In this document: positions 1 through 59,896 of the stretch, piece after piece | How positions within the stretch are numbered: the first letter of the stretch is position 1 | How the letters are laid out: each line of letters starts with the position of its first letter | Assembly (NCBI GenBank): GCA_964403585.1 | Contig: CAYOFQ010000001.1 | Location: forward strand, 1,216,826-1,280,825 | DNA: 64,000 bases | Direction: 5' to 3' | Source: an uncultured Gammaproteobacteria bacterium | GTDB taxonomy: Bacteria; Patescibacteriota; Microgenomatia; JALYQM01 | Notes under the pieces: model-generated | Told to the model about the DNA's origin: nothing | Database searches by the model: none | What the model saw: only the letters and a program-made list of their open reading frames with translations | Made by a program: the position numbers and the translations under genes

Positions 1-455
1 CGTTTTCGTTCGTCCATAGTCGGATCAATAACGTCCGACACATCCTGTTTTTTATTACCATCCTGACGAATTACCTCAAAATCCGATTCTCCCGGCTCCC
101 AGTAGCCATCCTCAGTAACCAGTACCGAATAAGAAACATCCGTATGGAAACCCTTATAATAAGCCCCCACATCGATTCCCATACGGTCACCGACCACTAA
201 CGGCTCCGTTTGAGGGATACCGTGTACAACAATATCATTTAAACAGGAGCAGATCGTATATTTATAACCTGGAACCCGTTTAAATGAGGCTTCTCCGCCC
301 ATTTCCCTGATTTTAGCCTCAGCGATACGATCAAGCTCCATTGGGGTTATTCCGGGCCTTACAGCGGCTTTAACGGCACGTAACGCCGCTGTGGTGATCT
401 TACCACCCTCCCGCATATTATCGACATCTTCTTTTGACTTCATAGGTATTTTCAT
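1..455 (-). CDS. map: methionine aminopeptidase type I, partial (C-terminus beyond window start)
   Basis: Reverse-strand translation from the ATG at 455: MKIPMKSKEDVDNMREGGKITTAALRAVKAAVRPGITPMELDRIAEAKIREMGGEASF...HGIP; M24A-like N-terminus; canonical position after adk in the spc operon. No stop before position 1. Confidence 0.8.
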   Translation of the reverse strand, partial: MKIPMKSKEDVDNMREGGKITTAALRAVKAAVRPGITPMELDRIAEAKIREMGGEASFKRVPGYKYTICSCLNDIVVHGIPQTEPLVVGDRMGIDVGAYYKGFHTDVSYSVLVTEDGYWEPGESDFEVIRQDGNKKQDVSDVIDPTMDERK

Positions 456-597
456 AAATTTATCTTCAAAGACTGCTGCAGACTTGTTTCCATGCGACCT
501 TCTTCGCCATACTTCTATTGGCGAAGCAGAGCTCCTAAACGCGAAGCGTTGAGCGTGTCGCCTGAAAACAAGTCAATGAGGGTTTTGATATATAAAA

Positions 598-1161
598 CTA
601 GCTCATTAACTCCGCATCCCCTATTTGTAACATTCGCTTTATTCTACCATACAAATCCTGAAAAATCGCATCAGGATCACGCTCACCATCAATTTTCTCC
701 AATATCGCCAAAGACTCAAACCAGTGGAGAACCGGTACAGTACGCTCATAATACAACCGTAAACGCTCTTTGATAACCTCAGGAGTATCATCAGCCCGAC
801 CGCGATTGGCCAGCCGCCGGATACATTCATCCTGACCAACATCCAAATAAAATACCCGGTCAATTCTCCCCTTATGCTCCTGAGCCTGCTTCAAATCCCG
901 GGGAAAGCCGTCGACAATAACATGACTGTGGTATTTGGCCTTCTCAAACATGATTTCTAATACCATATCGGCAGTTTCTTTATCAACCAGATGACCTGCC
1001 TCCAGTGCCGAACGAACCTTTTGACCAAGCTCGGTATTTTCCTTAGCTATCTCACGAAAAACCTCACCTGATTCGAGGTGAGGTATATCAAACACAGCAG
1101 CCAGCCGTTCAGCCTGGGTAGTTTTTCCGCTACCTTGTGGACCCATGATGATAATTACCAT
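598..1161 (-). CDS. adk: adenylate kinase (short form, no Zn lid)
   Basis: P-loop IIMGPQGSGKTTQ; VDGFPR motif; follows secY region in the spc operon. Confidence 0.9.
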   Translation of the reverse strand: MVIIIMGPQGSGKTTQAERLAAVFDIPHLESGEVFREIAKENTELGQKVRSALEAGHLVDKETADMVLEIMFEKAKYHSHVIVDGFPRDLKQAQEHKGRIDRVFYLDVGQDECIRRLANRGRADDTPEVIKERLRLYYERTVPVLHWFESLAILEKIDGERDPDAIFQDLYGRIKRMLQIGDAELMS

Positions 1162-1214
1162 ATAAAATGCTAAACGATTATATATAACTTTACTAAGGAA
1201 TACAAAGGTATAAA

Positions 1215-2486
1215 TTATGTATTTGGTGTCGTCCGATTTTTATACGCAGCAACAAGCCTGGGTATTGGCCACATCTGAGTTATGTCCCATGCTTTTTGCC
1301 CAGAAACTGCTAAAGCGGCAGATACCTGATCTTCAGACATCCGATGAGTAACAGCGTTTGTAGTGGCCATCTGTAATCCGGACAGATCATTTTGAACCTC
1401 GGTAATCAGGCACGCCCAAGTTCCAACCAACATATCATATACCGGCGTCTCTCTAAACGGATCGATAGCCACGTTAATTTCGGTGATCGCGTTGAGTAAA
1501 GGATCCGCCCACCCCGATCCCCCTTCTTTTATCAGACTCGGCATATCCCGATCCAGACGTTTATACGCTCGATACATGGTATAGAGCAGATTGTAATACG
1601 TATCAATTGTATCCGAGTCGACTGCGGTAAGATCAACGTTCACAACAGCATCGCGGATATTCGGATGCTCAGTGTCAATCAGTGCCTTAACAACAATACG
1701 CCGTTCTTCCGGCAACGCATCCGTAAATAAAGGGATATCGGTTCGGTTATAATCATCTTTTGATTGAAACGAGTTATAGCCACCGGTATCAGGCAGAATA
1801 AAATCAGAGAGTTTTCCTACTTGTGAGTTAAGACCAAGTAAACGGAGGCCATCAATTCGCCGGATGTCCCGCATATCGATACGCACAGCAATCAGCAGCT
1901 GGCGATCATTATAGATATTTCCCCCACTTGTAAAGGCACTTCCCCCACTCGCCTCAACGTAGCGCAACCCAAGACCTTTGGATACATCACCTTTCGTACG
2001 ATAGTCAGGAGTAAATATCGCACCTGGCATATGCTCAAGAAGCTGCCAGGGAAAATCTTCTCTTCGTTCATTAGTCCATTGTTCAACTACCCCGGGTCGG
2101 AAACTGCTTACGGTTCTACGCAACTGATTCATTGTTTCAGTCTTCGCCTGAATCTGTCTCACGGCAACACGGGTGGTATCAGTATCAAATTGCTTGCTTG
2201 ATTCAAGTAGGGCTATCCCGTCAGCAATTAAGGCATTGTTCGCAGCAGAAAGATCCCGCAAATGTCTGGCAACATCACCACGCCATTGCTCAAGCTGAGG
2301 AAATCCATGGATACCGACACTAATTGGCAAACTGTGGTCCTCAAGATTACGACCAACTCGCCGGACAGCTAATCCTGCCTGCAATACTGATAGCGCATTT
2401 TCACCGGACTTAGCATCAGGAAGAGAATATAATAAACTATCTAAATACGAAGTGGCGTACTTGCCTTCTATTTTTTTCATAGTCAA
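1215..2486 (-). CDS. hypothetical protein, 423 aa, inserted between secY and adk
   Basis: Long uninterrupted ORF, co-directional and tightly spaced (13-16 nt gaps) inside the spc operon; no motif I recognise. Confidence 0.6.
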   Translation of the reverse strand: MTMKKIEGKYATSYLDSLLYSLPDAKSGENALSVLQAGLAVRRVGRNLEDHSLPISVGIHGFPQLEQWRGDVARHLRDLSAANNALIADGIALLESSKQFDTDTTRVAVRQIQAKTETMNQLRRTVSSFRPGVVEQWTNERREDFPWQLLEHMPGAIFTPDYRTKGDVSKGLGLRYVEASGGSAFTSGGNIYNDRQLLIAVRIDMRDIRRIDGLRLLGLNSQVGKLSDFILPDTGGYNSFQSKDDYNRTDIPLFTDALPEERRIVVKALIDTEHPNIRDAVVNVDLTAVDSDTIDTYYNLLYTMYRAYKRLDRDMPSLIKEGGSGWADPLLNAITEINVAIDPFRETPVYDMLVGTWACLITEVQNDLSGLQMATTNAVTHRMSEDQVSAALAVSGQKAWDITQMWPIPRLVAAYKNRTTPNT

Positions 2487-2501
2487 GGCAGAGAATGAGT
2501 A

Positions 2502-3788
2502 TTATTCCAGGAAACGGTCGTAATTGTGAGTTACCAGGAGAGATTCAAGTTGTTTACTGGTTTCAAGAATAACGGAAACGACAATCAATAAACCTGTTCC
2601 ACCTAAAAGAACGGTCGTAACTCCGGTAATTGAACTAGCAATCGCCGGTAAAATAGCAACTGAAGCTAAAAAGATACCGCCAACTAACGTAATACGATTG
2701 AGTACATAGTTCAGATAACTCTGCGTTGGCTTACCGGGCCTAATACCGGGAATAAATCCACCGTTTTTCATTAATTGCTCAGATATATCTTTGGTATTGA
2801 AGGCAATAGCCGTGTATAGATAGGTAAACCCGAACACTAAAAGAAAATATACCGCATTATAAACAAAGGAATTAGGATTAAATGCCTGAGAGAGCCAGAT
2901 CGCTGCATCAGCGAGCTGTTTATTGCGGGAGGTGCTGAAAAACTGCCCCAACATACTTGGAATAAGTACCATCGAAACAGCAAAGATAATCGGGACGACA
3001 CCAGCCTGATTGACACGAAGCGGCAAATGACTATCCTGTCCACCAATAACCTGGGTACCCCGAACCCGACGGGCATATTGTACCGGTATCTTTCGCGCAC
3101 CTTCACTGATATACACAATTCCGGCGATCAAAGCGATACCCATTACCGCAAATACACCGTAGTTAAACCAGTTAATCGTCGCTGTCGAAGCGTACGCCTG
3201 AGCAACAACTTCAGGCAAACTGCCAACTATACCGGCAAATATCAACATTGAAACACCGTTACCAATGCCATACTGAGTGATCAGTTCTCCTAACCACATC
3301 AAAATCATTGTTCCGGCGGCGAGCGTCAGAACAATGGCAATAATGGTTAAAGGATTAACATCACCGACTACTTTAGACGATCTGAGTAAAGCAAAGACAC
3401 CAAATGCTTGTAACGCAGCTAATGGAATAGTTAACCAACGGGTGTACTGATTAATCTTTTCTCTCCCCTGCTCGCCTTCTTTAGATAATTTCTCTAAGGC
3501 CGGGAACATAATCGTCATCAACTGAAGGATAATCGAGGCGTTAATATACGGATTCAAACCAAGTGCAATAATTGAGAATCTGCTCAAAGTACCACCGGAG
3601 AAGACGTCTAATAATCCAAGGAATTGGCTACGGTCAAATAATTGCTTTAATGCAGCAGTATTAACACCGCTAACAGGGATAAAAGCTAAAATACGAAATA
3701 CTACTAAAATAGCGACTGTAAAAAGAATCTTCTTTCGTACTTCAGGAATTTGAAACGCCTGAAAAATAGGAGCAAATATTTTTTGCAT
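2502..3788 (-). CDS. secY: preprotein translocase subunit SecY
   Basis: 428 aa, 10 TM polytopic protein, operon position after rplO. Confidence 0.95.
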
Positions 3789-3791
3789 ACT

Positions 3792-4226
3792 CTATTGTAC
3801 GTTTCCACCGGCACGTTCAATAGCTTCTTTTGCGGAAGCAGAAACAGGAAGTTCAACGGTTAATTTTTTAGTTAAATTGCCCTGTCCTAAAACCTTCACT
3901 CCAGACTGTGACGGAGAAACAACACCCTTCTCGTATAATGATTGTAACGTTACTGTCTCACCCGCATTAAATGAAGACTCCAGAACTGCCAGAGTCACCA
4001 CTATCGGTTTTTCATTTTTATTCAAATTTCCAATACCACGAACTTGTGGTAAATGCTTAAGCAAACGGCTTCGGCGGCTTCCGCCAACCCGATACCAGGG
4101 TGATTTACCGCGGGCCTTGTCACCTTTATGACCACGCCCTGAAGTTTTACCACGACCGGATGATGTACCACGTCCTACTCGTTTTCGGCTTCGCTCTACT
4201 AATGATGGCATTTCATGTAATTTCAT
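3792..4226 (-). CDS. rplO: 50S ribosomal protein L15
   Basis: GRGTSSGRGKTSGRGHKG motif; directly follows rpsE with no L30 gene between. Confidence 0.9.
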   Translation of the reverse strand: MKLHEMPSLVERSRKRVGRGTSSGRGKTSGRGHKGDKARGKSPWYRVGGSRRSRLLKHLPQVRGIGNLNKNEKPIVVTLAVLESSFNAGETVTLQSLYEKGVVSPSQSGVKVLGQGNLTKKLTVELPVSASAKEAIERAGGNVQ

Positions 4227-4230
4227 AACT

Positions 4231-4818
4231 TTACTTCACTTTCTTCAAAATATCTTTAACCGCATCATCGTCGGCAACTACCGGTAATTCATCAAGTGCA
4301 ATCTTCTCTTCTTTCTTCAAAATAACCTTCCGTCCCCCGTCGTCTTTACCAAGCCGGGTAGCACGCAACTGACCTAAAGCATGCAACGTTGCATAAACGT
4401 TTGAAGCCTGGTTTGTTGTTCCCATAATTTTAGAAACAACATCCCGAACTCCGGCTGCTTCAAGTACGGCACGGGCTGGTCCACCGGCAATAACACCGGT
4501 ACCTTTGGGAGCCGGCTTAAGCAAAATCTTAGCAGCACCAAGCTTTACAAATATATCGTGTGGAATAGTCGTTCCCTTCATTGGAACAGTTAGCAAATGC
4601 TTCTTGGCATAGTTAGCACCTTTACGAATAGCACTAGAAACATCCGGAGCTTTACCTAAACCAACACCAACTCGTCCTTTTTTATCGCCTACTACAATAA
4701 CTACTGAGAAACCCATACGGTTACCACCCTTTGTCTTTTTAGAGACTCGGTTAACCTGAACAACTTTCTCTTCGAATTCTTTTGGTTCCTGTGAATGATA
4801 TGAATTATTGTATGCCAT
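4231..4818 (-). CDS. rpsE: 30S ribosomal protein S5
   Basis: S5 dsRBD-like N-terminus and S5 C-terminal domain; operon position. Confidence 0.9.
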
Positions 4819-14179: not shown

Positions 14180-15604
14180 ATGCAATGGTATAATTCCAAT
14201 CCATCTATGAATGAGCAACAAAAAAGGAAGTATTCCGATCACGCACTACTTGACCAACTGCCACTCCCCTTTGTCGGGAAAAAAACCAAGATTGGCAATG
14301 GCGCTAACTCGGTCGCGATTAGGATTGAGTCAGATAACCAGGCTCGCTTCATAGCAATTATTAAAGAAGATAACCCCGAGACTCGAAATGCACTCCGAAG
14401 AGGTATGGATTTGCGTCAACAATTTCCTGAATTCACACAAGACCAAATGGCTATAGTAACCGAAGGGCTAGACGGTGAACATATAACTGTTCGCATCGGA
14501 CCCGAAATTGACGGAGGCAATCTTAATGACTACGGATTGCTCTATAACCTTTCCAACCCAACCATTAGACGAAAACTAGTACAGCTAACCGCTGAGACAC
14601 TGCACCACTTTTCGCAAACCGGCACCTTACTGGATTGGGGAGGCCGTAAACCACGGAACAAAATTCACAAAGCGCTTATCGCCGCCAACCCCCTCAGTAC
14701 CAATAATATTGTTGCCTCTGACGACCAAAGGGAGTTCATTTTTGTAGACAATGAAGTCTACGATACCTTCAACTGGAGAACAGCCAGCCCTATGTACAAA
14801 GCTGTCATAGCCATACAGTTGGCAGCCCATGTCGGCTGGGCGACTGTCATGGGTACTATCGAAAAACTGAGTTTCACCGACAAGGGATTACCAGTAGAAC
14901 AAGACTCTGCTTTCAAATTCACCGACGGCCTTTCCAAAGTAATACGTCTCTTGAAGGAATCAGGAACTAACTATTTTATCGTGGGTTCAACTGCACATGC
15001 AGCCTGGTGCGAACAATACGGTGTATTTAAAGATCTGAGTTTACATCGAGCTAACGGAACCAAAAGAGATATCGATGTAATGATCTACTCGAGCGATCAT
15101 GAGCAACTTGCTCAACTACAAGCAAAAATAACTGCACTTGAAACTGATATAAATTGCCCTGAAGTATCTCTCCATATCTCCCAAGAACTCTCTCTTTATC
15201 AAGCTAAGCAAGAAAAACGTGTCGGGAAAAGAATAAAAACCATGTTCCAAGTTCCGGTAATAGACCAGGGTCAACCTGCGGCTGCGTATGATGACCTTGT
15301 ATTATATCTCGACCCTTCAATGCTCGAACCTCAACAAATTACCTACAAAAATATTTCTATAAGAACGTTACGTCCCGAAATATTAGCCGGAATGTATATT
15401 TATCGAGGTGGTGCAGTGAAGCCGAAGGATACTGAAAAGATTAAAGAATTAGTAACTTTAGCTGGACAATCTATACCATTTGAATTTATAGAGTTTGCTC
15501 GAGAAATTAGACGCACCCATCGAAACGACTATCGCAACTTCATAATTACAGAAATTACAAAGCCATTAAGAAGTAAGATTAGAAAATTACTGTCATTTAG
15601 CTAA
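14180..15604 (+). CDS. two-domain protein: N-terminal small-kinase-like domain (Gly-loop IGNGANSVAIRI...IAIIKE) fused to C-terminal pol-beta-type nucleotidyltransferase domain (GS...TKRDIDV, ANT(2'')/Lnu-like)
   Basis: Motifs read from the translation; 474 aa; stop is 4 nt before the TagA-like gene. Confidence 0.55.
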   Translation: MQWYNSNPSMNEQQKRKYSDHALLDQLPLPFVGKKTKIGNGANSVAIRIESDNQARFIAIIKEDNPETRNALRRGMDLRQQFPEFTQDQMAIVTEGLDGEHITVRIGPEIDGGNLNDYGLLYNLSNPTIRRKLVQLTAETLHHFSQTGTLLDWGGRKPRNKIHKALIAANPLSTNNIVASDDQREFIFVDNEVYDTFNWRTASPMYKAVIAIQLAAHVGWATVMGTIEKLSFTDKGLPVEQDSAFKFTDGLSKVIRLLKESGTNYFIVGSTAHAAWCEQYGVFKDLSLHRANGTKRDIDVMIYSSDHEQLAQLQAKITALETDINCPEVSLHISQELSLYQAKQEKRVGKRIKTMFQVPVIDQGQPAAAYDDLVLYLDPSMLEPQQITYKNISIRTLRPEILAGMYIYRGGAVKPKDTEKIKELVTLAGQSIPFEFIEFAREIRRTHRNDYRNFIITEITKPLRSKIRKLLSFS

Positions 15605-17144: not shown

Positions 17145-18275
17145 TCATGTTAACAATTCTTTTGATACCAGGTGTGGTATAGTTGGTACTAACTTTGGCA
17201 CTCTCAATTCGGCAGTATTTAGAACCGTAAAAGTACTCATGATCTCTTCTAGCGATCGACTCCGCAGCAGTTTCAATCCGATCAGACATCCCATCAAGTT
17301 AGCTCTGATATCAAACCGCCACTCATTATCAAAATATCCGTCCTGAACAGGCACACTTGAGATAACATTAGTCAGATTATGCAATTTTAAGGTTTGTTTC
17401 AATTCAAAACCATACCCCGCCATAAGAGACGCTAGAGACAGTGCAGACTCTTTATGTACCATTTGGAGATAGTCTGGGATGAAACTCAACAACCCCGCTG
17501 CTTCCAAGTGCAGATGCATGTTATATTTTTGGCTTAAGCCAAGTAAAACCACCAATGCCATATGATGACTCGCGTGTATCAAACGGTCTACTCCGTTGTA
17601 TTCGACCGGATTAGTCGCTTGCTCTTTACGCAGAATACCGGCGTTATTGAATACCCGTAAATACCCTGAATTACGATCCCAGGCGTTGGGATAGCGATAC
17701 CGGCTACTACCAATTTGATTATCAAAATCAGGAGTATACGAATTAAGCAAGGCCGCGGTCGAAATAACAAAATTCATCAATAACTCGTCACGGTAGTTCA
17801 CGCTTTGAAGTGCCTCCTCCAGCCGATCGGGATAGGCACCCTTAGGAAAATAACTGGCAGCGGAATCATCGAGCGCTTGATGCGTAGAAGCCAGCAACGC
17901 CGTATAAATATCTCCCATTCCCCAGTTTGAATGAATTTCGGCAGCGGAAAAAGCATTATATGCGGCTTGATGAACGAGCGGAAAAACTAATTCATTGGTA
18001 TACCAACCAATCGGATCAGCGGTTCCAAAATAAGGTTGCGGATTGGCAAAACAAGCAATTCCATACCCAGGAAAGACATCTGTCGCAGTTGCAAGTTTCT
18101 CCTGAAGGCTTTGTCTATGTTCAAAAATCCGGTCAAGGCGATATAACGGCTCTGCAGCAACCACACTGCCAAGTAATCCTATCCTACGCAACACTTGAGC
18201 AATAGTTATTGCTCTCACCGTCCTTTCACTTCGCTCCAGGAACTGCCGTCTGGGGATTCCTTCATATAAACTCAT
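17145..18275 (-). CDS. hypothetical protein, 376 aa
   Basis: Long ORF, no recognised motif. Confidence 0.5.
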   Translation of the reverse strand: MSLYEGIPRRQFLERSERTVRAITIAQVLRRIGLLGSVVAAEPLYRLDRIFEHRQSLQEKLATATDVFPGYGIACFANPQPYFGTADPIGWYTNELVFPLVHQAAYNAFSAAEIHSNWGMGDIYTALLASTHQALDDSAASYFPKGAYPDRLEEALQSVNYRDELLMNFVISTAALLNSYTPDFDNQIGSSRYRYPNAWDRNSGYLRVFNNAGILRKEQATNPVEYNGVDRLIHASHHMALVVLLGLSQKYNMHLHLEAAGLLSFIPDYLQMVHKESALSLASLMAGYGFELKQTLKLHNLTNVISSVPVQDGYFDNEWRFDIRANLMGCLIGLKLLRSRSLEEIMSTFTVLNTAELRVPKLVPTIPHLVSKELLT

Positions 18276-28078: not shown

Positions 28079-30292
28079 ATGGCAAAAAGCGTCGAACAAC
28101 CTGCAGAACCTCAAAAACCACATCAGATAATTGAACTGAAACCAAACCGTTTTGGTCTGGAAACACCTGACACTGCTATCTCACTATTTGGAGCACTTTC
28201 CTCGCTACCTCGCGCACCTTTCTTTGAGCGGTTACGGGGACGACACCACTCTATTACCCTGGAAATTGCGACTATCAATCAGGCGATCCATTTTTTCGCC
28301 GAAATGCCTGATCAGTTTAAAACCTTTTTTGAGAGTCAGCTGATTTCCCACTATCCGACTATTCAAATGTACCAGGTCGATGACTATCTACCGGGGTTCC
28401 TCTCTCAACCATATTTATCGTATGGTCAAATAAAATTTTACTCACCCTTCTACTACCCCATCAAAACCTTAAAGGATTTTAAAGACATCGATCCGCTTTC
28501 TTCAATCCTGGGTGTCATGTCAAAAACAAAGCCCAATGAGGGAATGCTAATTCAAATGACGCTGACCGCCGCACCACCCACCTGGCAGCGTATGGGTAGA
28601 AATGTCATTGATAAGGGTATTCCCGGACCGGAAAAAGGTACACGTCAAGCGCATCCGCAGGCAGCACTTATTCAGAGTAAAATCGATAGCAACGGACTGC
28701 ATGTAGCGATTAAAGTTGCCGCCTTTGCGGCAGATCTGAATACGGCAAGATCCAATTTGTATAATTTGGGTGGAGCCTACGGAGGATTCGCAACTGGTGA
28801 AGGGAACGCTTTGATATTACGATTACCATCGGTATTTGCCCGCAAAAAATTCCTGGAAAGCATGCGACAAAGAACCATCGCCTTCTCACCTCGAAACCAT
28901 GTCTTCTCGGATGAAGAACTCGCTACCATTTGGCATCTACCGGGTGAAAAACTGGCCGGTATTAAAAACATTGCGTGGGGAAAAAGCCAGAAAGGTGAGC
29001 CGCCACAAAACTTACCAATCGCACGGAATTTAACAGCCGAACAGAAACAGGAAGTTGCTTGGCTGGGACGGACTGATTTTAAAAACACTGAGGAAATTTT
29101 TGGTATTAAAAAAGAGGACCGGTTTAAACACACGTATGTAATTGGAAAAACCGGTACGGGTAAATCCACGCTTTTACAAAATATGATTATCTCGGATATG
29201 CGCAATCGCGAAGGATTATGTATCATCGATCCGCATGGCGATTTCGCCGATGTTATCCTCGATTATGTACCATCCTACCGTATTAACGATGTTGTTTACC
29301 TTGATCCTTCCGACATGGAACATCCGTTCCGCTTAAATCCGTTCGAGTTAGGCACCATTAACGCCTCCGACCTTACCGGACAACGCGAACTGGTTGCTGC
29401 CGGTATTGTGGGAATTTTCAAAAAACTGTATGCCAAGAGCTGGGGACCCCGATTGGAATATATTCTACGCAATGTAATCCTGACACTGGTACAGTTTAAA
29501 GATGCTACCTTTTTATACGTACCGGAAATGCTCACCAACGACCGCGTTAGAGGCGCGATTGTCTCCCGCATCCAGGATCCGGTCTTACGCAGTTTCTGGG
29601 AACAGGAATTTGCCGGCATGACCGATAAACTCCGCACCGAAGCAATCTCACCAATTCTAAACAAAGTCGGACAATTTATCAGTTCGCAATATACCCGATC
29701 GGTTATCTCAAGCCCTCGTTCTTCTATAAGTTTGGAGCAAATAATGGACGAGAAAAAAATTCTTATTCTTAACCTGTCTCAGGGAAAAATCGGCGAAGAC
29801 AACTCTGCTCTCCTTGGTGCGATGTTTATTACCAAAATGCAGATCGCTGCGATGAACCGCGCCTGGCTCGCCAAAGACCAGCGCCAGGATTTTTTCCTTT
29901 ACGTCGATGAGTTCCAGAACTTTGCTACTGACGCGTTCATTAAAATTCTTTCTGAAGCTCGTAAGTATCGTTTGGCCTTGATCATGGCTAACCAGTACAC
30001 ATCTCAGCTTAACGACGATATCCGCAGTTCAATCTTCGGTAACGTCGGTACATTAGTTTCCTTTACGGTTGGAGCGGAAGACGCCCCGTATCTCTCAAGA
30101 GAATTTGGAGGAATTTATACTGAACAAGACCTAGTAGGTATCGACAACTACAATATTGTTTGTAAACTTAACATCGATAACCAGACAAGTTTACCTTTTA
30201 GTGCCAAGACATTACCACTGCCTTACCAGCTGAAAAATAAAAACAAAGAGAAAGTACTCAAAGTAAGCTGGGAAAAATACGGAAAAAAATAA
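28079..30292 (+). CDS. TraD/VirD4/TrwB-like coupling-protein-family P-loop NTPase (FtsK/HerA superfamily) with novel soluble ~330-aa N-terminal domain
   Basis: Walker A VIGKTGTGKSTLLQNMI, DPHGDF motif, Walker B LYVDEFQNF; no TM helix at the N-terminus; 737 aa. Confidence 0.6.
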   Translation: MAKSVEQPAEPQKPHQIIELKPNRFGLETPDTAISLFGALSSLPRAPFFERLRGRHHSITLEIATINQAIHFFAEMPDQFKTFFESQLISHYPTIQMYQVDDYLPGFLSQPYLSYGQIKFYSPFYYPIKTLKDFKDIDPLSSILGVMSKTKPNEGMLIQMTLTAAPPTWQRMGRNVIDKGIPGPEKGTRQAHPQAALIQSKIDSNGLHVAIKVAAFAADLNTARSNLYNLGGAYGGFATGEGNALILRLPSVFARKKFLESMRQRTIAFSPRNHVFSDEELATIWHLPGEKLAGIKNIAWGKSQKGEPPQNLPIARNLTAEQKQEVAWLGRTDFKNTEEIFGIKKEDRFKHTYVIGKTGTGKSTLLQNMIISDMRNREGLCIIDPHGDFADVILDYVPSYRINDVVYLDPSDMEHPFRLNPFELGTINASDLTGQRELVAAGIVGIFKKLYAKSWGPRLEYILRNVILTLVQFKDATFLYVPEMLTNDRVRGAIVSRIQDPVLRSFWEQEFAGMTDKLRTEAISPILNKVGQFISSQYTRSVISSPRSSISLEQIMDEKKILILNLSQGKIGEDNSALLGAMFITKMQIAAMNRAWLAKDQRQDFFLYVDEFQNFATDAFIKILSEARKYRLALIMANQYTSQLNDDIRSSIFGNVGTLVSFTVGAEDAPYLSREFGGIYTEQDLVGIDNYNIVCKLNIDNQTSLPFSAKTLPLPYQLKNKNKEKVLKVSWEKYGKK

Positions 30293-38165: not shown

Positions 38166-39640
<1,475 letters not shown>

Positions 39641-39738
39641 ATAAAAATTATCCATCAAATTTTGGGTATTCCGTTATCAATCCTACTAACTCTTACAAGC
39701 GTTCGGTCTGTCAAACGGAATGAAATTCATAGGAATTG

Positions 39739-40883: not shown

Positions 40884-41963
40884 TTGAGAATAGGTCTACA
40901 ATATGATATAAAAAAGCGTCCCTACATATGCACATCGAACAACTGGATTTTCTTGCACCAACACCATGGAATACAACAATGGAACTCATCAGTAATAACC
41001 CGTACGACGCTGGATGATATGTGGTTCCCTGTTTACTGTGACATGAACCGGGAATGGGTTCACTTGGATCCGTATGTTTTCGGTACGAATGGTTCGGAGA
41101 CAATCGAAGGGCCATTACCTGAACTGATACACGTTCTGGCTAAAGCTATCGGAATTGAAATACCGGTTATCCTTACCACGGAGGAACAGATTTCTGCCGA
41201 TGTTTATGAAGAACAAACCCAACTGGTACCCGGTAACGTTTCTCGGGCTGTCGCACTACGCAAAATTTTGGCACAACACGCTGATCAAGGATACTCACCC
41301 GGACCTGACAATATGGGAGAAGTGCTCGCCGAAGCCGAAGAACAACGAAAAAAGCAGCGGTTCCTGCGCAGAAAAATCGGATTTGCAAAAAAAACGTATC
41401 AGGAAACCGTCTACCATAAACCGCAAATTAACGTAATTCATGTCCTCGATCACCCCTACCAAAGCACTCAATCTCAACTTAATGCATATATGTGGTGGGT
41501 CAATAATTTCTATTATTATGTCATGGCCCGTCCCAACAACGGAACTCAATCAATCACCTATATCACCCGCGACATTGACTCTCCACTTGGATTCCCCAAA
41601 AATGTTCGTTCTCAAGGCGCCTTGCATATAAACACTACCGGCGATACAAATACCTTGCTGGATCTGGCGATTGAACATACTGCATTGCTCAAACAAGGAC
41701 CAAATAGCAAAACACACATCTTCTATTACTCTACACCGGAGCAACATCCCCGCATGCTGGAACAAACCTTAAACCAGGTACAGGCACTGGATTTAGAAAA
41801 CGACTCAATAACACTCTTAGAAGGAGACAATGTGTATCGCCAAAGTCCACTTTACTATCACCTTCACTCTCAAGGTGGTACGCTTCAGGCGGAAAAATTC
41901 GACCCTAATAAGATAGGACAAACTCTCAGCCTTACCCTACGAAACCCCTTTAGATATGCATAG
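40884..41963 (+). CDS. hypothetical protein, 359 aa
   Basis: Long ORF; true start may be an internal Met. Confidence 0.45.
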   Translation: MRIGLQYDIKKRPYICTSNNWIFLHQHHGIQQWNSSVITRTTLDDMWFPVYCDMNREWVHLDPYVFGTNGSETIEGPLPELIHVLAKAIGIEIPVILTTEEQISADVYEEQTQLVPGNVSRAVALRKILAQHADQGYSPGPDNMGEVLAEAEEQRKKQRFLRRKIGFAKKTYQETVYHKPQINVIHVLDHPYQSTQSQLNAYMWWVNNFYYYVMARPNNGTQSITYITRDIDSPLGFPKNVRSQGALHINTTGDTNTLLDLAIEHTALLKQGPNSKTHIFYYSTPEQHPRMLEQTLNQVQALDLENDSITLLEGDNVYRQSPLYYHLHSQGGTLQAEKFDPNKIGQTLSLTLRNPFRYA

Positions 41964-42006: not shown

Positions 42007-44835
42007 ATGCTTTCAAAAACGCTGAGCAATTCTCTCCAACGCAATAAAATAGTATTTATCTATGCAATTTTCGCAGCAGTTCTTGGCTTGTCACTCTATT
42101 ACAGCCAGACATCAACAGTAAAAATCAATCAAAAGAAACCTGAGATCTCCGGAACACTTCGGCATATTACCCAACACGTACTCGATCAGGAAAATCCCAT
42201 TGAGCAGGCAGTGCTTGTAACAGAGGGGAAAACATACACTTTGGATTATGGAGATAACCTGGAAGAATATTACAATAAGTATATAACCGTCCAGGGAGAC
42301 ATTAATCAGAATACGCTCATTGCACAAAAAATAGAGCTCTCCACAAACGCTTCGTTGACCGATATTGACTCAAGTGAAGCGCAATCAACAACCGGCGATA
42401 TAAAACCATTAGTACTTCTCATTAATTTCAAGGACAATACGTCAACTCCTTTTAGCAAAGAATTACTTGCTCAGAACATTTTTACCGGAGAAAATTCAGT
42501 AAAAAATTATTTTACTGAAGCTTCATTTGGAAAAACAAAAATTATCGGCGACATAAACAGTGTCAAAGGATGGTATACCATCGACTTGGCAAGCGACAAA
42601 TGTGATACAAATTGGCTTTATGATATGGGTATCAAAGCCAGAGCAAAAGCAGAAGCTGACGGAATTAGCTACAGCAACTACAACTCCTTTATCATCATCC
42701 ATGCTCGAACAGCAGCCTGCAGTACCAAGCTAGACGGAAAAACATATCCAATTGAAGGACTGTCTGAGTTAGGAGGAAGATTGGTCTGGATGAACGGCAA
42801 TGCGAATATCCGACCTATTGCCCATGAAATTGTACATACGATGGGTATCGGACACTCGCATCTCTGTACAGACATTTCCTGCCAAACAATTAGGGAAACC
42901 GGCGACCGGACAGATTTAATGGGAATTTACCAAAACACAGCGCCTTCACATATTAACGCAGCGTTTAAAAATGCTCTTAAATGGATTCCTGAAACCGAAC
43001 CCCGCACAAAAAGACTACTTGGTCCGAAGAAATATGATAATCTAGCGATTTATCCTGTCGAAGAATCAAGTTCTAACACCCAGCTAATAAAAATTGGAAT
43101 TCTCCCCCCTTATTATTCGGCGGACTATACTATTACCTACCGAGTTAAAAAGGACAATAACTTCGACGCTCGGGCAAATATTGAAAACGGAATATATATC
43201 CACCGTTATTCCACACTTGAGTCAACATTCGGGAAACAATCACCCAGTTCAAAATTAGTCAGACATTTGACCCCTGGCAACCCAACATTTACCGATCCGG
43301 AATATAAAGTAACAATCAAATTAATTGGCATGGATTCAACAAAAGCAAACTTGTTTATAGATTACGGGCTTGATGGAACGTTCGTCAACGAACCTGCACC
43401 TAGTCCAAGCGGTACTGCCCCGTCCATCAGCTACTGTTCAGGGCTCGATGCTAAAAATATGCTCTCTAACGCTGTGACTTATTGTTACGGACATGCGAAG
43501 AGCACAACCTGCGCAACTATGGATACAGCTCTTCGAGCATCATATGGACCGGCCAATCTATGCGAACAAAATAAAACCCAGTGTACCAGCGGTGCTTCCA
43601 GCGGGATATGTACTGCCGCAGCCGAATTTCAAAAAGTTACCGATTGGTGTTATAACATCGTACGCAATGATCCGACCGAAGCCGGCAAAGCTGGCGTCAG
43701 CGCAAAATGGTGCAATGATTTCGCGACAGTAACAAGTGATGCCCATGAAGACTGCAACACCTGTTCCGGCGGCACCGGAAGTAATCCTGAAGCCACACCG
43801 AAGATAGTAGCAATCAATGGAGGTATTTGGGATACTAATGGAAATCCGGTGAGTGGAGTAAAAGTAAAAGTTGAAGGCAATGGAGCTAGCGGCGCCTGGA
43901 AACCATACTTCCCGACAACTCGACCAAACGGGACTTTTAGTCAAGGTGGATTTATAGTTAAAGGCGGAAGATATAACGTCTCGGTAGTTGATGTTGAAGC
44001 AAAAACTATTGTTGAGCCTGATACAAAAAATAGAGTTACCGGACAAGATACACCACTTGGATCAGTTGCGTATCTAAATCAACAAGCGGAAAGCGACGAT
44101 TGCACAGAAAGTTGGGGTGGAGCTGATTCTCGATGTATTTTTCTAGTACGAAAACCTTTGGACATCGGAACTGCCAATGACGTTACGACATTCTATTACC
44201 CTTCAAATGACCGAATAGTGGTGCATCGCTCCTATGTAATGAAAGACGGGCGAACTTTCAATTGGAGAAAATGTTCATTTCCTCCTGCAAAAGGATGGCC
44301 TGTTTACTGTGAAGGATATAACAAAACAATGCTGGATACACCTACTCCAATACTCGGGTACGGAGCACTCATGATCTCGAGCAAAGTTCGCCAGGATTTT
44401 ATCGCATCCAACGGACAGACCAGGTACAGTAGAGTCTGCGCATGGAACAAAGAAAAATCTCAGGTTACAACTTGTGGGGCGTATGTTACCGAAAAAATTA
44501 CTGCCCCAACCGCAGTCAGAGACATTAACACGATGATTTTGTTCGGAAAATATCGGGAATCGCTCATTAGCCTTGATGGCAAAAAAACGTATTCAAGGGA
44601 CTGCACACTAGACTTCAGCACCACTGCTTTTTCAAACTGTACAGCATATCAAACATACTCAACTCAAACAATACTTTCTGGCGGTGTTAGTGGTTATGGA
44701 GCACTCCCTTATCGAGATGGGTATGGCAGAACTGCAATTCAGCAAATATTCCTTGGCATGGATGGACGTACATTCCAGGTGGGAAGCTGTGTTGCTCAAT
44801 CCTCCAGCAATATTACCTGCAAGAATGTATTTTAG
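42007..44835 (+). CDS. large secreted/membrane-anchored metzincin-like zinc metalloprotease with Cys-rich C-terminal region
   Basis: N-terminal hydrophobic anchor IVFIYAIFAAVLGLSLYY; IAHEIVHTMGIGHSH fits HExxHxxGxxH; more than 25 Cys in the C-terminal half; 942 aa. Confidence 0.6.
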   Translation: MLSKTLSNSLQRNKIVFIYAIFAAVLGLSLYYSQTSTVKINQKKPEISGTLRHITQHVLDQENPIEQAVLVTEGKTYTLDYGDNLEEYYNKYITVQGDINQNTLIAQKIELSTNASLTDIDSSEAQSTTGDIKPLVLLINFKDNTSTPFSKELLAQNIFTGENSVKNYFTEASFGKTKIIGDINSVKGWYTIDLASDKCDTNWLYDMGIKARAKAEADGISYSNYNSFIIIHARTAACSTKLDGKTYPIEGLSELGGRLVWMNGNANIRPIAHEIVHTMGIGHSHLCTDISCQTIRETGDRTDLMGIYQNTAPSHINAAFKNALKWIPETEPRTKRLLGPKKYDNLAIYPVEESSSNTQLIKIGILPPYYSADYTITYRVKKDNNFDARANIENGIYIHRYSTLESTFGKQSPSSKLVRHLTPGNPTFTDPEYKVTIKLIGMDSTKANLFIDYGLDGTFVNEPAPSPSGTAPSISYCSGLDAKNMLSNAVTYCYGHAKSTTCATMDTALRASYGPANLCEQNKTQCTSGASSGICTAAAEFQKVTDWCYNIVRNDPTEAGKAGVSAKWCNDFATVTSDAHEDCNTCSGGTGSNPEATPKIVAINGGIWDTNGNPVSGVKVKVEGNGASGAWKPYFPTTRPNGTFSQGGFIVKGGRYNVSVVDVEAKTIVEPDTKNRVTGQDTPLGSVAYLNQQAESDDCTESWGGADSRCIFLVRKPLDIGTANDVTTFYYPSNDRIVVHRSYVMKDGRTFNWRKCSFPPAKGWPVYCEGYNKTMLDTPTPILGYGALMISSKVRQDFIASNGQTRYSRVCAWNKEKSQVTTCGAYVTEKITAPTAVRDINTMILFGKYRESLISLDGKKTYSRDCTLDFSTTAFSNCTAYQTYSTQTILSGGVSGYGALPYRDGYGRTAIQQIFLGMDGRTFQVGSCVAQSSSNITCKNVF

Positions 44836-50419: not shown

Positions 50420-50977
50420 ATGACAACGATTTTTGGATACATTTTGCTCGGAATATATCACGCGGTAATAGTAATTCCAATGTTTTATATAATTCCGCAG
50501 GCGCTAATTATAGCAGGATATTTATTCAACCTGAAAAAATGGAATAAGAAGTACATTCAGCATTTCGTTATTAATTCAGGTACTACATTTATCACCGCCA
50601 CGATAATTACTCATTTATACTTTTTACTGCGTCCTTTCGTAAACGTCTTCGAGTCAATTTCAATAATCTACACCCCGCTAACTATCGTGCTAATGCTGCT
50701 TTTTGTACTCATACCATTCCTTCCAATTCCAATATCCTATTACGTCAACAAGCGATTAACTAAGAAGAAAGAGCGAAAACTGTTCTACTTCTCCGCTGCC
50801 TACTTTTTTTATGCGCTCCTGCTATGTATCTTTTTCATCAAAAACTCACACTCGGTATATTTTCCGGAAGAACTACTTTTAAAACCGCTGCTCGTTCCTA
50901 ATCTCGTTAACTTTACCGAGATATTCGACATCCTCCAAAGCCGACTTTTTCTCGATCTATTCACCATTTTCGCTTAA
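50420..50977 (+). CDS. hydrophobic polytopic membrane protein, unknown function
   Basis: 185 aa, AT-rich, starts 3 nt after the 49404..50417 stop. Confidence 0.5.
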   Translation: MTTIFGYILLGIYHAVIVIPMFYIIPQALIIAGYLFNLKKWNKKYIQHFVINSGTTFITATIITHLYFLLRPFVNVFESISIIYTPLTIVLMLLFVLIPFLPIPISYYVNKRLTKKKERKLFYFSAAYFFYALLLCIFFIKNSHSVYFPEELLLKPLLVPNLVNFTEIFDILQSRLFLDLFTIFA

Positions 50978-58567: not shown

Positions 58568-59287
58568 TCAGGAGTCTTTATGGAGGTGTATAGGCATAAA
58601 GGTATTACGCAACAGCTTGACTGTGCTCTGTCGTTCTTCCAGTGAATTATATTGCTTATTCACTATAGTATGCCGGCGTTCCTGTATCGCTTTTAAAATC
58701 TCCCGCCAGTCACCGGTCTTGGGAAGATCAACCGAGACACACGTATTCCCGATATTATTCAACGTATGCGCATCACTGCCGCCAATACCAGGCAAATCCA
58801 ACACTAAAGCCAATGCCTGTGCACGCATATTATCGAGGGGTAATTCGTCACTGTTAAATACTTCTACCGCATCAAAGGCATAATCACCTACCTGGTGACC
58901 AATATAGAGTACTTTCCCGTATCTGCTGCAAAAAGGATGGGCCACAACTGCAATACCTCCGGCAGCATGTATAGCCGCAATAGTTTCCTTAACTGACCGG
59001 CGGGAAGGAATTCGCTCCTCGACGCCATATGCAAGGATATGAGTTCTGCGACGTGATAATCTGTTCGATCGAGTAGTAATTTCTACTCCGGGGATAAGTA
59101 CGATTCCTTTTTCCTGAGCATATTCTTTTACTACACCATATGCTTCCTGGGAATCATGATCGGTAATTGCGATAAAATCCAGTCCAATAGAAACCGCATG
59201 ATCAATAAGCTCAAAAGGAGTTGGCAAGTCACGATGAACCCATTTAACACGGGATAAACGCGTATGGCAATGCATCTCACCAATCAT
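58568..59287 (-). CDS. PHP-domain phosphoesterase
   Basis: MHCHTRLS...ITDHD PHP motifs; 239 aa. Confidence 0.75.
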   Translation of the reverse strand: MIGEMHCHTRLSRVKWVHRDLPTPFELIDHAVSIGLDFIAITDHDSQEAYGVVKEYAQEKGIVLIPGVEITTRSNRLSRRRTHILAYGVEERIPSRRSVKETIAAIHAAGGIAVVAHPFCSRYGKVLYIGHQVGDYAFDAVEVFNSDELPLDNMRAQALALVLDLPGIGGSDAHTLNNIGNTCVSVDLPKTGDWREILKAIQERRHTIVNKQYNSLEERQSTVKLLRNTFMPIHLHKDS

Positions 59288-59896
59288 AGAACGATTGTAT
59301 CACACCCCGCGAAAAATCTTGCAAATAATTTTCTCTTGCAGGACAATAATAGTATGAATAGTAACTTCGGCTTTGCCATGATTGTTGATCCGATCATTCC
59401 GATCGTTAATCTCTGTTATTTTTTTATCGTAATCATCGCCATAATCACGACCATCACAGTGTTAATTGGTAAACGAAAAACGCCGGGATACAACCTCAGG
59501 TTCCTGGTAACAGGGGCCTTATCAACAGCGTTCTCAGTTATAACATCGTTTATACTAATTGAAATATTCGCCTATTTCACTGCCGACACGGCACAAAGTT
59601 CCTATTACCGCTCAGTTGTGTACCATTCCAGCAGTTGGAATATCTTATATTTCCATCTCTTAACTGTTTTATTTACTACCGCTTCGGTATTTTATTTATA
59701 TAAGAGAGATAACAAATCATTCGCAACCACTACAACCATTGTTCTCTGTGTCTTGTTCAGTTTATTACTAAGTTTCATCCCGGCAATGTATGTCCGTCAA
59801 TTCATTTACGAACCAACCCCGGCTATTCAGTTACGAACTCCCGGACCCGAATTCTACTCACAACAACAGCTCCAACCACCTCAAGTACCGTACTAA
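59264..59896 (+). CDS. membrane protein, unknown function
   Basis: 210 aa, about 4 TM helices. Confidence 0.45.
   Translation: MAMHLTNHRTIVSHPAKNLANNFLLQDNNSMNSNFGFAMIVDPIIPIVNLCYFFIVIIAIITTITVLIGKRKTPGYNLRFLVTGALSTAFSVITSFILIEIFAYFTADTAQSSYYRSVVYHSSSWNILYFHLLTVLFTTASVFYLYKRDNKSFATTTTIVLCVLFSLLLSFIPAMYVRQFIYEPTPAIQLRTPGPEFYSQQQLQPPQVPY

Follow-up and report, generated by a model that had tools for sequence, protein, structure and literature searches.

The secY-adk Region of the Window

A total of 64,000 nucleotides (nt) of contig CAYOFQ010000001.1 were analyzed, and this whole stretch is referred to here as the window. The contig has a length of 1,573,555 bp and the analysis covered 64 kb of a 1.57-Mb genome. 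The left end of the window holds the tail of the S10-spc ribosomal protein gene cluster on the minus strand, with the genes in the order rplO (3792-4226), secY, ORFX, adk and map, where map runs off the left window edge. ORFX is our name for a long open reading frame (ORF) that is located between secY and adk on the same strand as both genes (Table 1). An earlier note on this DNA had pointed out an unknown long ORF at this position, co-directional with its neighbours, and this is confirmed by the ORF listing and by the Pfam matches of the two flanking genes. Comparison of the gene orders of related genomes shows that insertions or breaks have recurred in this clade of Patescibacteria at the junction occupied by ORFX.

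Both genes flanking the insert appear complete. The C-terminus of SecY (...THNYDRFLE, followed by the stop codon) is the same as in the relatives, the N-terminus of Adk (MVIIIMGPQGSGKT) is intact and no alternative start was found upstream of the adk ATG. ORFX itself can be read from two start codons. An alternative start at an in-frame TTG gives a protein of 423 amino acids (aa; ORF 1215-2486, minus strand), and the ATG at 2480, which yields an N-terminus of the typical MKK... form, is the more plausible of the two. The earlier note had described gaps of 13-16 nt on both sides of the ORF. This holds for the upstream side if ORFX is counted from the TTG (15 nt, or 21 nt to the ATG), but not for the downstream side, where the gap is 53 nt.

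Table 1. Features of the secY-adk region in the window and secY-adk spacers in related lineages.
Feature	Position in window	Strand	Length	Remarks
secY	2502..3788	-		Pfam SecY, E=6.5e-109; upstream flank of the insertion
secY stop-ORFX ATG spacer	2481..2501	-	21 nt	Holds in-frame TTG 2486-2484; without Shine-Dalgarno sequence
Start-codon hairpin	2462..2490	-		10 bp, A-rich 7-nt loop, -9.0 kcal/mol; encloses the TTG and AUG of ORFX
ORFX coding sequence	1215..2480	-	421 codons	From ATG 2480-2478, stop 1217-1215; matches public gene call P0001
ORFX stop-adk ATG spacer	1162..1214	-	53 nt	AT-rich; without Shine-Dalgarno sequence, terminator or stable fold
TATAAT hexamer	1177..1182	-		Within TATATAAT; 15 nt upstream of adk ATG; candidate -10 box for adk-map
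adk	598..1161	-		Pfam ADK, E=1.4e-31; downstream flank of the insertion
secY-adk spacer, L010			2 nt
secY-adk spacer, L002, L013, L014			8 nt each
secY-adk spacer, L018			60 nt
secY-adk spacer, L007			82 nt
secY-adk spacer, L003			192 nt
secY-adk spacer, P0009 contig			about 850 nt	Co-directional 125-aa ORF without Pfam match
secY-adk spacer, window			1340 nt	ORFX
secY-adk spacer, L016			1764 nt	Short ORFs only (at most 101 aa), one of them, of 101 aa, being a Zn-ribbon ORF on the other strand
secY-adk interval, L017/L021			>10 kb	No adk within 10 kb

An independent assembly (Logan, run SRR16481187) reproduces both junctions of the insert exactly. One contig of this assembly (L022) is an exact match to window positions 2343-4332, and a second (L001) matches positions 1-1963 exactly and extends past the window edge. 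Because both junctions recur in this second assembly, the ORFX insert is not a one-off assembly chimera.

ORFX is a genuine and intact protein-coding gene. Its stop-free run extends over 428 codons, whereas shuffling the 1340-nt region 2000 times gave runs of 95 codons on average and 247 at most. With a codon model trained on 67 other ORFs of the window, the in-frame score of ORFX is 0.205 bits per codon. Host genes have 0.232 +/- 0.094, so that ORFX falls at their 40th percentile, and the two off-frames score -0.52 and -1.02 and the antisense frames about -0.36. The synonymous-codon score lies at the 45th percentile and the GC content at the first, second and third codon positions is within one standard deviation of the values for host genes. 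In the comparison of codon usage with neighbouring genes that the earlier note had proposed, ORFX is therefore typical of the host. The insert also resembles its surroundings as DNA, with a dinucleotide signature at the 49th percentile and a tetranucleotide distance at the 73rd percentile of equal-sized windows, and a GC content of 45.0%, against 43.1 +/- 2.2%. A foreign composition of the insert was considered and is ruled out by these host-like codon, dinucleotide, tetranucleotide and GC values. An artefact of assembly or of gene calling might be suspected from the protein cluster of ORFX, which has one member from one genome, but with two Logan contigs reproducing both junctions exactly and with coding statistics and composition that are host-like, the probability of such an artefact is negligible.

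Recurrent Insertion between secY and adk

SecY places the genome in the Patescibacteria, also known as the candidate phyla radiation (CPR), with named matches at about 60% identity to ‘Patescibacteria group’ and ‘Candidatus Levybacteria’. The clade surveyed consists of eleven lineages in which SecY is at least 69% identical, the window included. The nearest relatives by SecY identity are L002 (91%), L013 (90%) and L003 (89%), followed by L014/L015 (80%), the P0009 contig (78%), L017/L021 (76%), L016 and L018 (both 75%), L007 (74%) and L010 (69%), and the distant genomes compared have identities of 42-61%.

Fillers of at least 190 nt were found between secY and adk in five of the eleven lineages, four of which have fillers of at least 850 nt. 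Sequence comparison showed these fillers to be unrelated to ORFX and to one another. The view of the earlier note that the gene order is almost invariant at this place and that such insertions are rare therefore fails in this clade. In L017/L021, the genes that follow secY (at least seven, with products of 359, 370, 227, 191, 333, 586 and >1241 aa) are all without a Pfam match, and the four complete proteins that were translated from them (359, 370, 227 and 191 aa) contain, as judged by eye, hydrophobic segments that resemble signal peptides or membrane anchors. Among the other junctions of the cluster listed in the same gene tables, none is above about 280 nt, and the longest of them are accounted for by the small genes rpsN and rpmJ which had not been called. 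In more distant Saccharibacteria-like genomes the secY-adk spacers measure 37, 105, 251 and 948 nt. The junction is also listed as an insertion or break point in L008 and in L005/L012. A full-text literature search on insertions between secY and adk in CPR returned nothing relevant.

Conserved flanks with variable and unrelated content across relatives, as expected of a hotspot, are thus both present at secY-adk. Integration hotspots flanked by core genes are known elsewhere, for example the defence and prophage hotspots in enterobacterial genomes, and the junction resembles them in having conserved flanks with a content that varies by lineage. It differs from them in lacking an integrase, a tRNA gene, att-like repeats or a known defence gene, and also in its location inside a ribosomal-protein super-operon and in the cargo being, in the case of ORFX, a single gene. 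No integrase or transposase domain was found in ORFX with Pfam and the site is without an RNA gene. Neither terminal inverted or direct repeats nor a target-site duplication were found at the ends of the insert. The only repeats seen are scattered, 10-19 nt long and of the kind expected by chance, and none is located at these ends. The insert therefore shows none of the three marks of an insertion sequence or transposon (transposase, terminal inverted repeats and target-site duplication).

Repeated use of the junction in several lineages could also mean that ORFX is a mobile element or a free-standing gene of the homing-endonuclease type which targets this site. Homing endonuclease families are widespread, and selfish genes can establish themselves in the gaps between conserved genes by intronless homing, as the seg and mob genes of phage T4 do. 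ORFX is similar to these in being a single gene in a short spacer, co-directional with its neighbours and with the flanks undisturbed. It differs in having no nuclease motif or domain (LAGLIDADG, GIY-YIG, HNH and His-Cys were all absent in the Pfam search, as were transposases and integrases), in being predicted to be largely helical and in having no homologues. In addition, no other copy was found in the window or in the examined loci, the insert has no repeats or duplication at its ends, and the fillers all differ from each other, which points to a permissive site rather than to the target preference of one element. We consider that such an origin has very little likelihood.

Absence of ORFX from Relatives and Timing of the Gain

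Nothing similar to ORFX was detected by tblastn (E<=20) in the fetched DNA of any of the relatives examined, either at the secY-adk site or elsewhere. The insertion is hence lineage-specific, as the earlier note had expected, being absent from L002, L013 and L003, where SecY is 89-91% identical, as well as from all the other relatives examined. A frameshifted or degraded homologue, which would have marked ORFX as a pseudogene, was likewise not found in these genomes. The fillers of the relatives were searched for remnants with tblastn (E<=20), blastn at word size 7 and Smith-Waterman comparison against shuffled sequences, and no remnant was found. The only signal in this search was a marginal similarity of 34 nt (z about 2.7) directly before adk in L003.

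In a neighbour-joining tree of SecY and Adk, the window, L002, L013 and L003 are grouped with a bootstrap value of 1.0 and L014 lies outside the group. Within the group the tree is star-like, with pairwise identities of 86-87%, and the pairing of the window with L003 has a bootstrap value of only 0.27. The 8-nt spacers of L002, L013 and L014/L015 are TTCACCGT, TTCATATT and TCACAATT respectively. Since two members of the group and its outgroup all carry a spacer of 8 nt, the tight junction is ancestral and ORFX was gained late. The spacer comparison shows an insertion of about 1.33 kb into a spacer that is 8 nt long in the nearest relatives. As ORFX is absent from all the sampled relatives and was thus gained late, it is dispensable for the core function of the operon.

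The opposite history, in which the ancestor of the clade had ORFX and separate deletions removed it from L002, L013, L003 and other lineages, draws on the host-like composition, which fits a long residence, and on an adk-map element of 140 nt and the sequence TATATAATC which are found in both the window and L003, so that part of this architecture predates the window lineage. However, several precise deletions restoring the same junction would be needed to give the 8-nt spacers of L002, L013 and L014/L015, no remnant of ORFX was detected in any of the fillers by tblastn (E<=20) or by Smith-Waterman comparison with shuffled sequences, and the databases searched, which include the assemblies of those relatives, contain no homologue. 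We therefore regard this history as improbable.

The ORFX Product

The ORFX product has a predicted mass of 47 kDa, an isoelectric point of 5.5, a grand average of hydropathy of -0.33 and one cysteine. No transmembrane segment or signal peptide was predicted in it (the maximum over Kyte-Doolittle windows of 19 residues is 0.91), and these properties are those of a soluble protein of the cytoplasmic type.

ORFX is a strict orphan, with no homologue detectable in the databases searched. No family was matched at E<=1 in Pfam or in PADLOC (PADLOC-DB v2), no match was found in PHROGs or, using phmmer, among the PDB sequences, and the only match in NCBIfam is noise (E=0.064; 12.6 bits compared to a cutoff of 274). 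In a word-indexed search of 5.8 billion clustered proteins ORFX matched itself alone, in a cluster with a single member from a single genome, and the same result was obtained when phmmer was run exhaustively over 1.84 billion sequences representing about 15 billion proteins. The proteomes of the relatives were included in both searches. At the nucleotide level, no relative was found in JGI metagenome contigs and IMG/VR viral contigs (peptide-pattern and tblastn scans) or in GenBank phages (tblastn), and PLSDB plasmids gave nothing above noise (tblastn, E=0.5). The 64-kb window holds no paralogue of ORFX and no DNA repeat of the insert, and a scan of the insert and its spacers against Rfam gave no known RNA family at E<=1. 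The statement of the earlier note that the ORF has no recognisable motif holds across Pfam, NCBIfam, PHROGs, PADLOC and PDB. Homology to the cargo of mobile elements was also looked for among mobile-element, phage and defence families and none was found.

Three patterns seen by eye in the ORFX protein were examined and rejected. A reading of the string RNLEDH as the Rx4-6H motif of HEPN domains was dismissed since about 1.3 such matches are expected by chance given the composition of the protein, the structural context is wrong and there is no profile support. Strings similar to PD..K and a pattern resembling the R/S/E signature of ADP-ribosyltransferases were likewise found in the wrong structural context and without profile support.

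The full-length AlphaFold2 model from the single sequence is poor, with a predicted local distance difference test score (pLDDT) of 39. It shows long helices in residues 1-125, no predicted secondary structure in residues 126-255 and further helices in residues 258-414. When the C-terminal 170 aa were modelled alone, the pLDDT rose to 65.8 with a predicted template modelling score of 0.63, and values of 70-91 were reached over the first 116 residues of this segment. Residues 256-370 may accordingly form a helical bundle, for which the model is moderately confident. Foldseek searches of PDB and BFVD returned generic helical hairpins only (E>=0.027; template modelling score, TM, <=0.34), the best fold match in BFVD having E=0.027 and a TM of 0.10.

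ORFX does not belong to any of the families of the spc and alpha clusters (ribosomal proteins, SecY, Adk, Map, IF1 and RpoA) as judged with Pfam and NCBIfam. It has instead two features of a taxonomically restricted orphan, namely the lack of a homologue and the coding statistics of a real gene. Taxonomically restricted genes are abundant in CPR genomes, and ORFX is similar to them in having no homologue and no domain, an intact reading frame and host-like codon usage. It differs in its location, which is inside a highly conserved bacterial gene cluster and not in a variable region.

Expression Signals of ORFX

No terminator-like site was found at either junction of ORFX. Because no terminator flanks the gene, read-through is the default expectation, and co-transcription of ORFX by read-through from the S10-spc cluster is plausible. 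The translation signals are weak in comparison with those of the upstream ribosomal protein genes. Using the 16S rRNA tail ...CACCUCCUUUC for Shine-Dalgarno pairing, the free energy of the duplex is +0.7 kcal/mol for both ORFX and adk, and -4 to -6.4 kcal/mol for the ribosomal protein genes upstream. The hairpin that encloses the start codons of ORFX begins 12 nt after the stop codon of secY. Its z-score is -3.7 for a stretch of 33 nt (one of 200 shuffles is as good), and only -1.8 in a context of 55 nt. A ribosome which terminates on the upstream gene and thereby melts a start hairpin is a classic arrangement for translational coupling, and the hairpin of ORFX may act in such coupling or in attenuation.

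The codon adaptation index (CAI), calculated against the ribosomal protein genes of the cluster, is 0.571 for ORFX and 0.559 +/- 0.034 for 30 ordinary genes, compared with 0.61 for secY and adk, 0.65-0.68 for tuf and fusA and 0.71 for the ribosomal protein genes. The earlier note had reasoned that ORFX would be expressed at the level of the ribosomal operon. This is not supported by the sequence features: the absence of a Shine-Dalgarno sequence, the hairpin at the start codon and a CAI like that of ordinary genes all call for caution about high expression. ORFX would rather be transcribed by read-through from the S10-spc cluster and probably translated at a modest efficiency, by re-initiation coupled to the termination of secY translation.

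The position of ORFX directly after secY, in the same direction and with no terminator between the two genes, together with the hairpin start 12 nt past the secY stop codon that fits coupling, might suggest a lineage-specific partner of the translocon or the ribosome, with a stoichiometry set by the position of the gene and its coupling to secY. But SecY needs no such partner in the relatives where it is 89-91% identical and ORFX is absent, ORFX has no membrane segment and the protein has no resemblance to known ribosome or Sec factors. Moreover other lineages carry unrelated cargo at this site, such as the surface or secreted proteins of L017 and the small Zn-ribbon ORF of L016, hence the position alone carries no functional meaning. 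A role of this kind is very improbable.

Signals Upstream of adk and the adk-map Region

The insertion breaks the tight 8-nt link between secY and adk which is seen in the relatives. Hexamers of the TANNNT type were surveyed in the last 45 nt before the start of adk. Besides the TATAAT hexamer listed in Table 1, the window has a second one (TAGCAT) 5 nt upstream of the adk ATG, and L003 carries TATATAATC 7 nt before its adk ATG. Such a hexamer is positioned 6-7 nt before the adk ATG in six of eleven expanded spacers of the relatives and in none of the tight spacers. The hexamers found before adk are TATAAT (L003, L009), TATAGT (L004, L016), TAAAAT (L019) and TACTCT (L005/L012). This placement corresponds to the geometry of a leaderless transcript and suggests that adk and map are transcribed as leaderless mRNA in these lineages. 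The 53-nt spacer between ORFX and adk has a minimum free energy of -3.8 kcal/mol (z=+0.9). Expression of adk-map in the window genome is probably maintained by the -10-like element just upstream of adk in the insert, and we infer from the hexamers that lineages with an interrupted junction would drive adk-map from its own promoter. Such a promoter would explain the tolerance of insertions between secY and adk.

A non-coding element of 142 nt lies between adk and map (456-597, minus strand). Its predicted fold has a free energy of -49.1 kcal/mol (z=-4.85; none of 200 shuffles as good), and a homologue with 77% identity over 114 nt is found only in L003 (L003:8044-8179) with a fold of -43.2 kcal/mol (z=-3.6). 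The element is absent from L002, L013, L014, L016 and L018, where the adk-map gap is at most 20 nt or the genes overlap. Between the window and L003, 17 of the predicted pairs differ, and pairing is kept in 12 of these, in six by changes to both partners; the slid controls gave about 45-52%. The antisense strand folds about equally well (-47.2 kcal/mol), and the element is single-copy and has no match in Rfam. Possible interpretations are an RNA that regulates map-infA in cis and a palindrome at the DNA level. Directly upstream of the called start of map, an in-frame ATGAAAATACCT encoding MKIP is located at 443-455 (minus strand). As this extension is conserved in L003, L007 and L014, map probably starts 12 nt earlier than in the Logan gene call, at window position 455.

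Other Orphans and Features of the Window

Six of the twenty window proteins scanned besides ORFX have no Pfam match. One of these, the ORF at 14180-15604 (plus strand, 474 aa), is located 12 kb from ORFX, has no Pfam domain and matches itself alone among the 5.8 billion proteins. ORFX is thus not the only strict singleton in the window, and orphans are common in this genome. Five further sizeable ORFs have no Pfam match at E<=0.001, namely 17145-18275 (minus strand), 40884-41963, 42007-44835, 50420-50977 and 59264-59896 (all plus strand), the largest of which encodes 942 aa. Three of these (42007-44835, 50420-50977 and 59264-59896) also rank near the bottom of the window by codon-model score.

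A complete bacterial 16S rRNA gene (1442 bits) was found at 38166-39645 on the minus strand, and no 23S or 5S rRNA gene was detected in the 64-kb window. With the 16S rRNA gene present and these two missing from the window, the rRNA genes appear to be unlinked in this genome. The ORF at 28079-30292 (plus strand, 737 aa) matches T4SS-DNA_transf, TrwB_AAD_bind, TraG-D_C and DUF87, that is, coupling proteins of type IV secretion and ATPases of the HerA/FtsK type. This VirD4/TraG-like gene could point to machinery for DNA uptake or conjugation.

Origin and Function of ORFX

The best explanation, to which we assign a probability of about 0.7, is that ORFX is an accessory orphan cargo gene, expressed by read-through and lodged at a point of the spc cluster where insertions recur. 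Because its codon usage and oligonucleotide signature match those of the host, the donor would be compositionally similar and unsampled, either a relative, a phage or plasmid of the lineage, or another place in the same genome from which the gene was relocated. For the function we can offer a guess at low confidence, by analogy with the typical cargo of hotspots, that ORFX is an accessory cytoplasmic protein of a conflict-type or niche-specific kind. It is less likely to be part of the translation or secretion machinery.

Several points weigh against this explanation. The window and L003 have in common the rare adk-map element and the sequence TATATAATC before adk; this could make them sister lineages descended from an ancestor in which the secY-adk spacer was already expanded, with ORFX possibly lost on the L003 branch. 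Alternatively, the gene would have entered later, in the window lineage only. The counts of promoter-like and terminator-like sites are no higher than in shuffled sequence, and both the start hairpin and the -10 element were picked out after the fact. The search for paralogues covered 64 of 1,573 kb, so paralogues or a donor element may lie elsewhere in the genome. A conflict-type function is suggested by the analogy with other hotspots only, with PADLOC and PHROGs both negative, and ORFX could be a neutral passenger.

This last alternative is the one to be taken most seriously, although we still hold it to be unlikely. ORFX would then be a neutral or selfish passenger, intact because it is recent and headed for decay or deletion, as the fillers of L016 and L003, which are poor in ORFs, maybe were. 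It is consistent with ORFX being a strict singleton that is absent from all relatives, with the lack of a Shine-Dalgarno sequence and a start codon buried in a hairpin, and with a CAI that is not raised despite the position in the operon; the 1764-nt filler of L016, with its ORFs of at most 101 aa, resembles degraded cargo. On the other hand, all 421 codons of ORFX are intact with a strong in-frame signal, and the fully host-like codon and oligonucleotide usage points either to a long residence under selection or to a very similar donor. In genomes as small as those of the CPR, useless DNA in an essential operon would be expected to be purged quickly.

A bolder version, which we think quite improbable, sees in ORFX the first and so far the only representative of a new family whose fold is undescribed. 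It would have been recruited to the secY-adk junction since translational coupling to secY sets its dosage, and would act either as a lineage-specific modulator of the translocon or the ribosome or as a new single-gene conflict module (defence or addiction). If this were true, a conflict module placed in an essential operon and supplying the promoter of adk-map would be hard to lose, and together with the other fillers the junction would be a previously undescribed cargo hotspot in the ribosomal super-operon of the Patescibacteria.

Significance of the secY-adk Boundary

The genes that flank ORFX correspond in identity, order and orientation to the canonical tail of the spc operon (rplO-secY-adk-map-infA, as in Bacillus subtilis), and the relative L013 shows the whole cluster uninterrupted from rpsS to rpsI. 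The window differs from this arrangement by an extra gene of 421 codons, where a junction of 8 nt that is compatible with coupling is replaced by 21 nt, ORFX and 53 nt. Taken by itself, ORFX is one more orphan in an orphan-rich genome, and its function cannot be read from the sequence. The pattern at the hotspot is of more interest than the gene: in this clade secY and adk do not form a fixed boundary but a permissive one, at which unrelated pieces of DNA have been acquired several times, the smallest of about 200 nt and the largest an island of more than 10 kb with genes for putative surface proteins. Through these changes adk-map appears to stay expressed by means of a -10 box positioned for a leaderless or short-leader transcript. 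Should the pattern hold in a broad survey, it would reveal a place at which the S10-spc-alpha super-operon, rigid elsewhere, tolerates the gain of genes, and the secY-adk junction would be a defined and readily found site for the functional study of lineage-specific cargo genes of the CPR, which could be harvested there.

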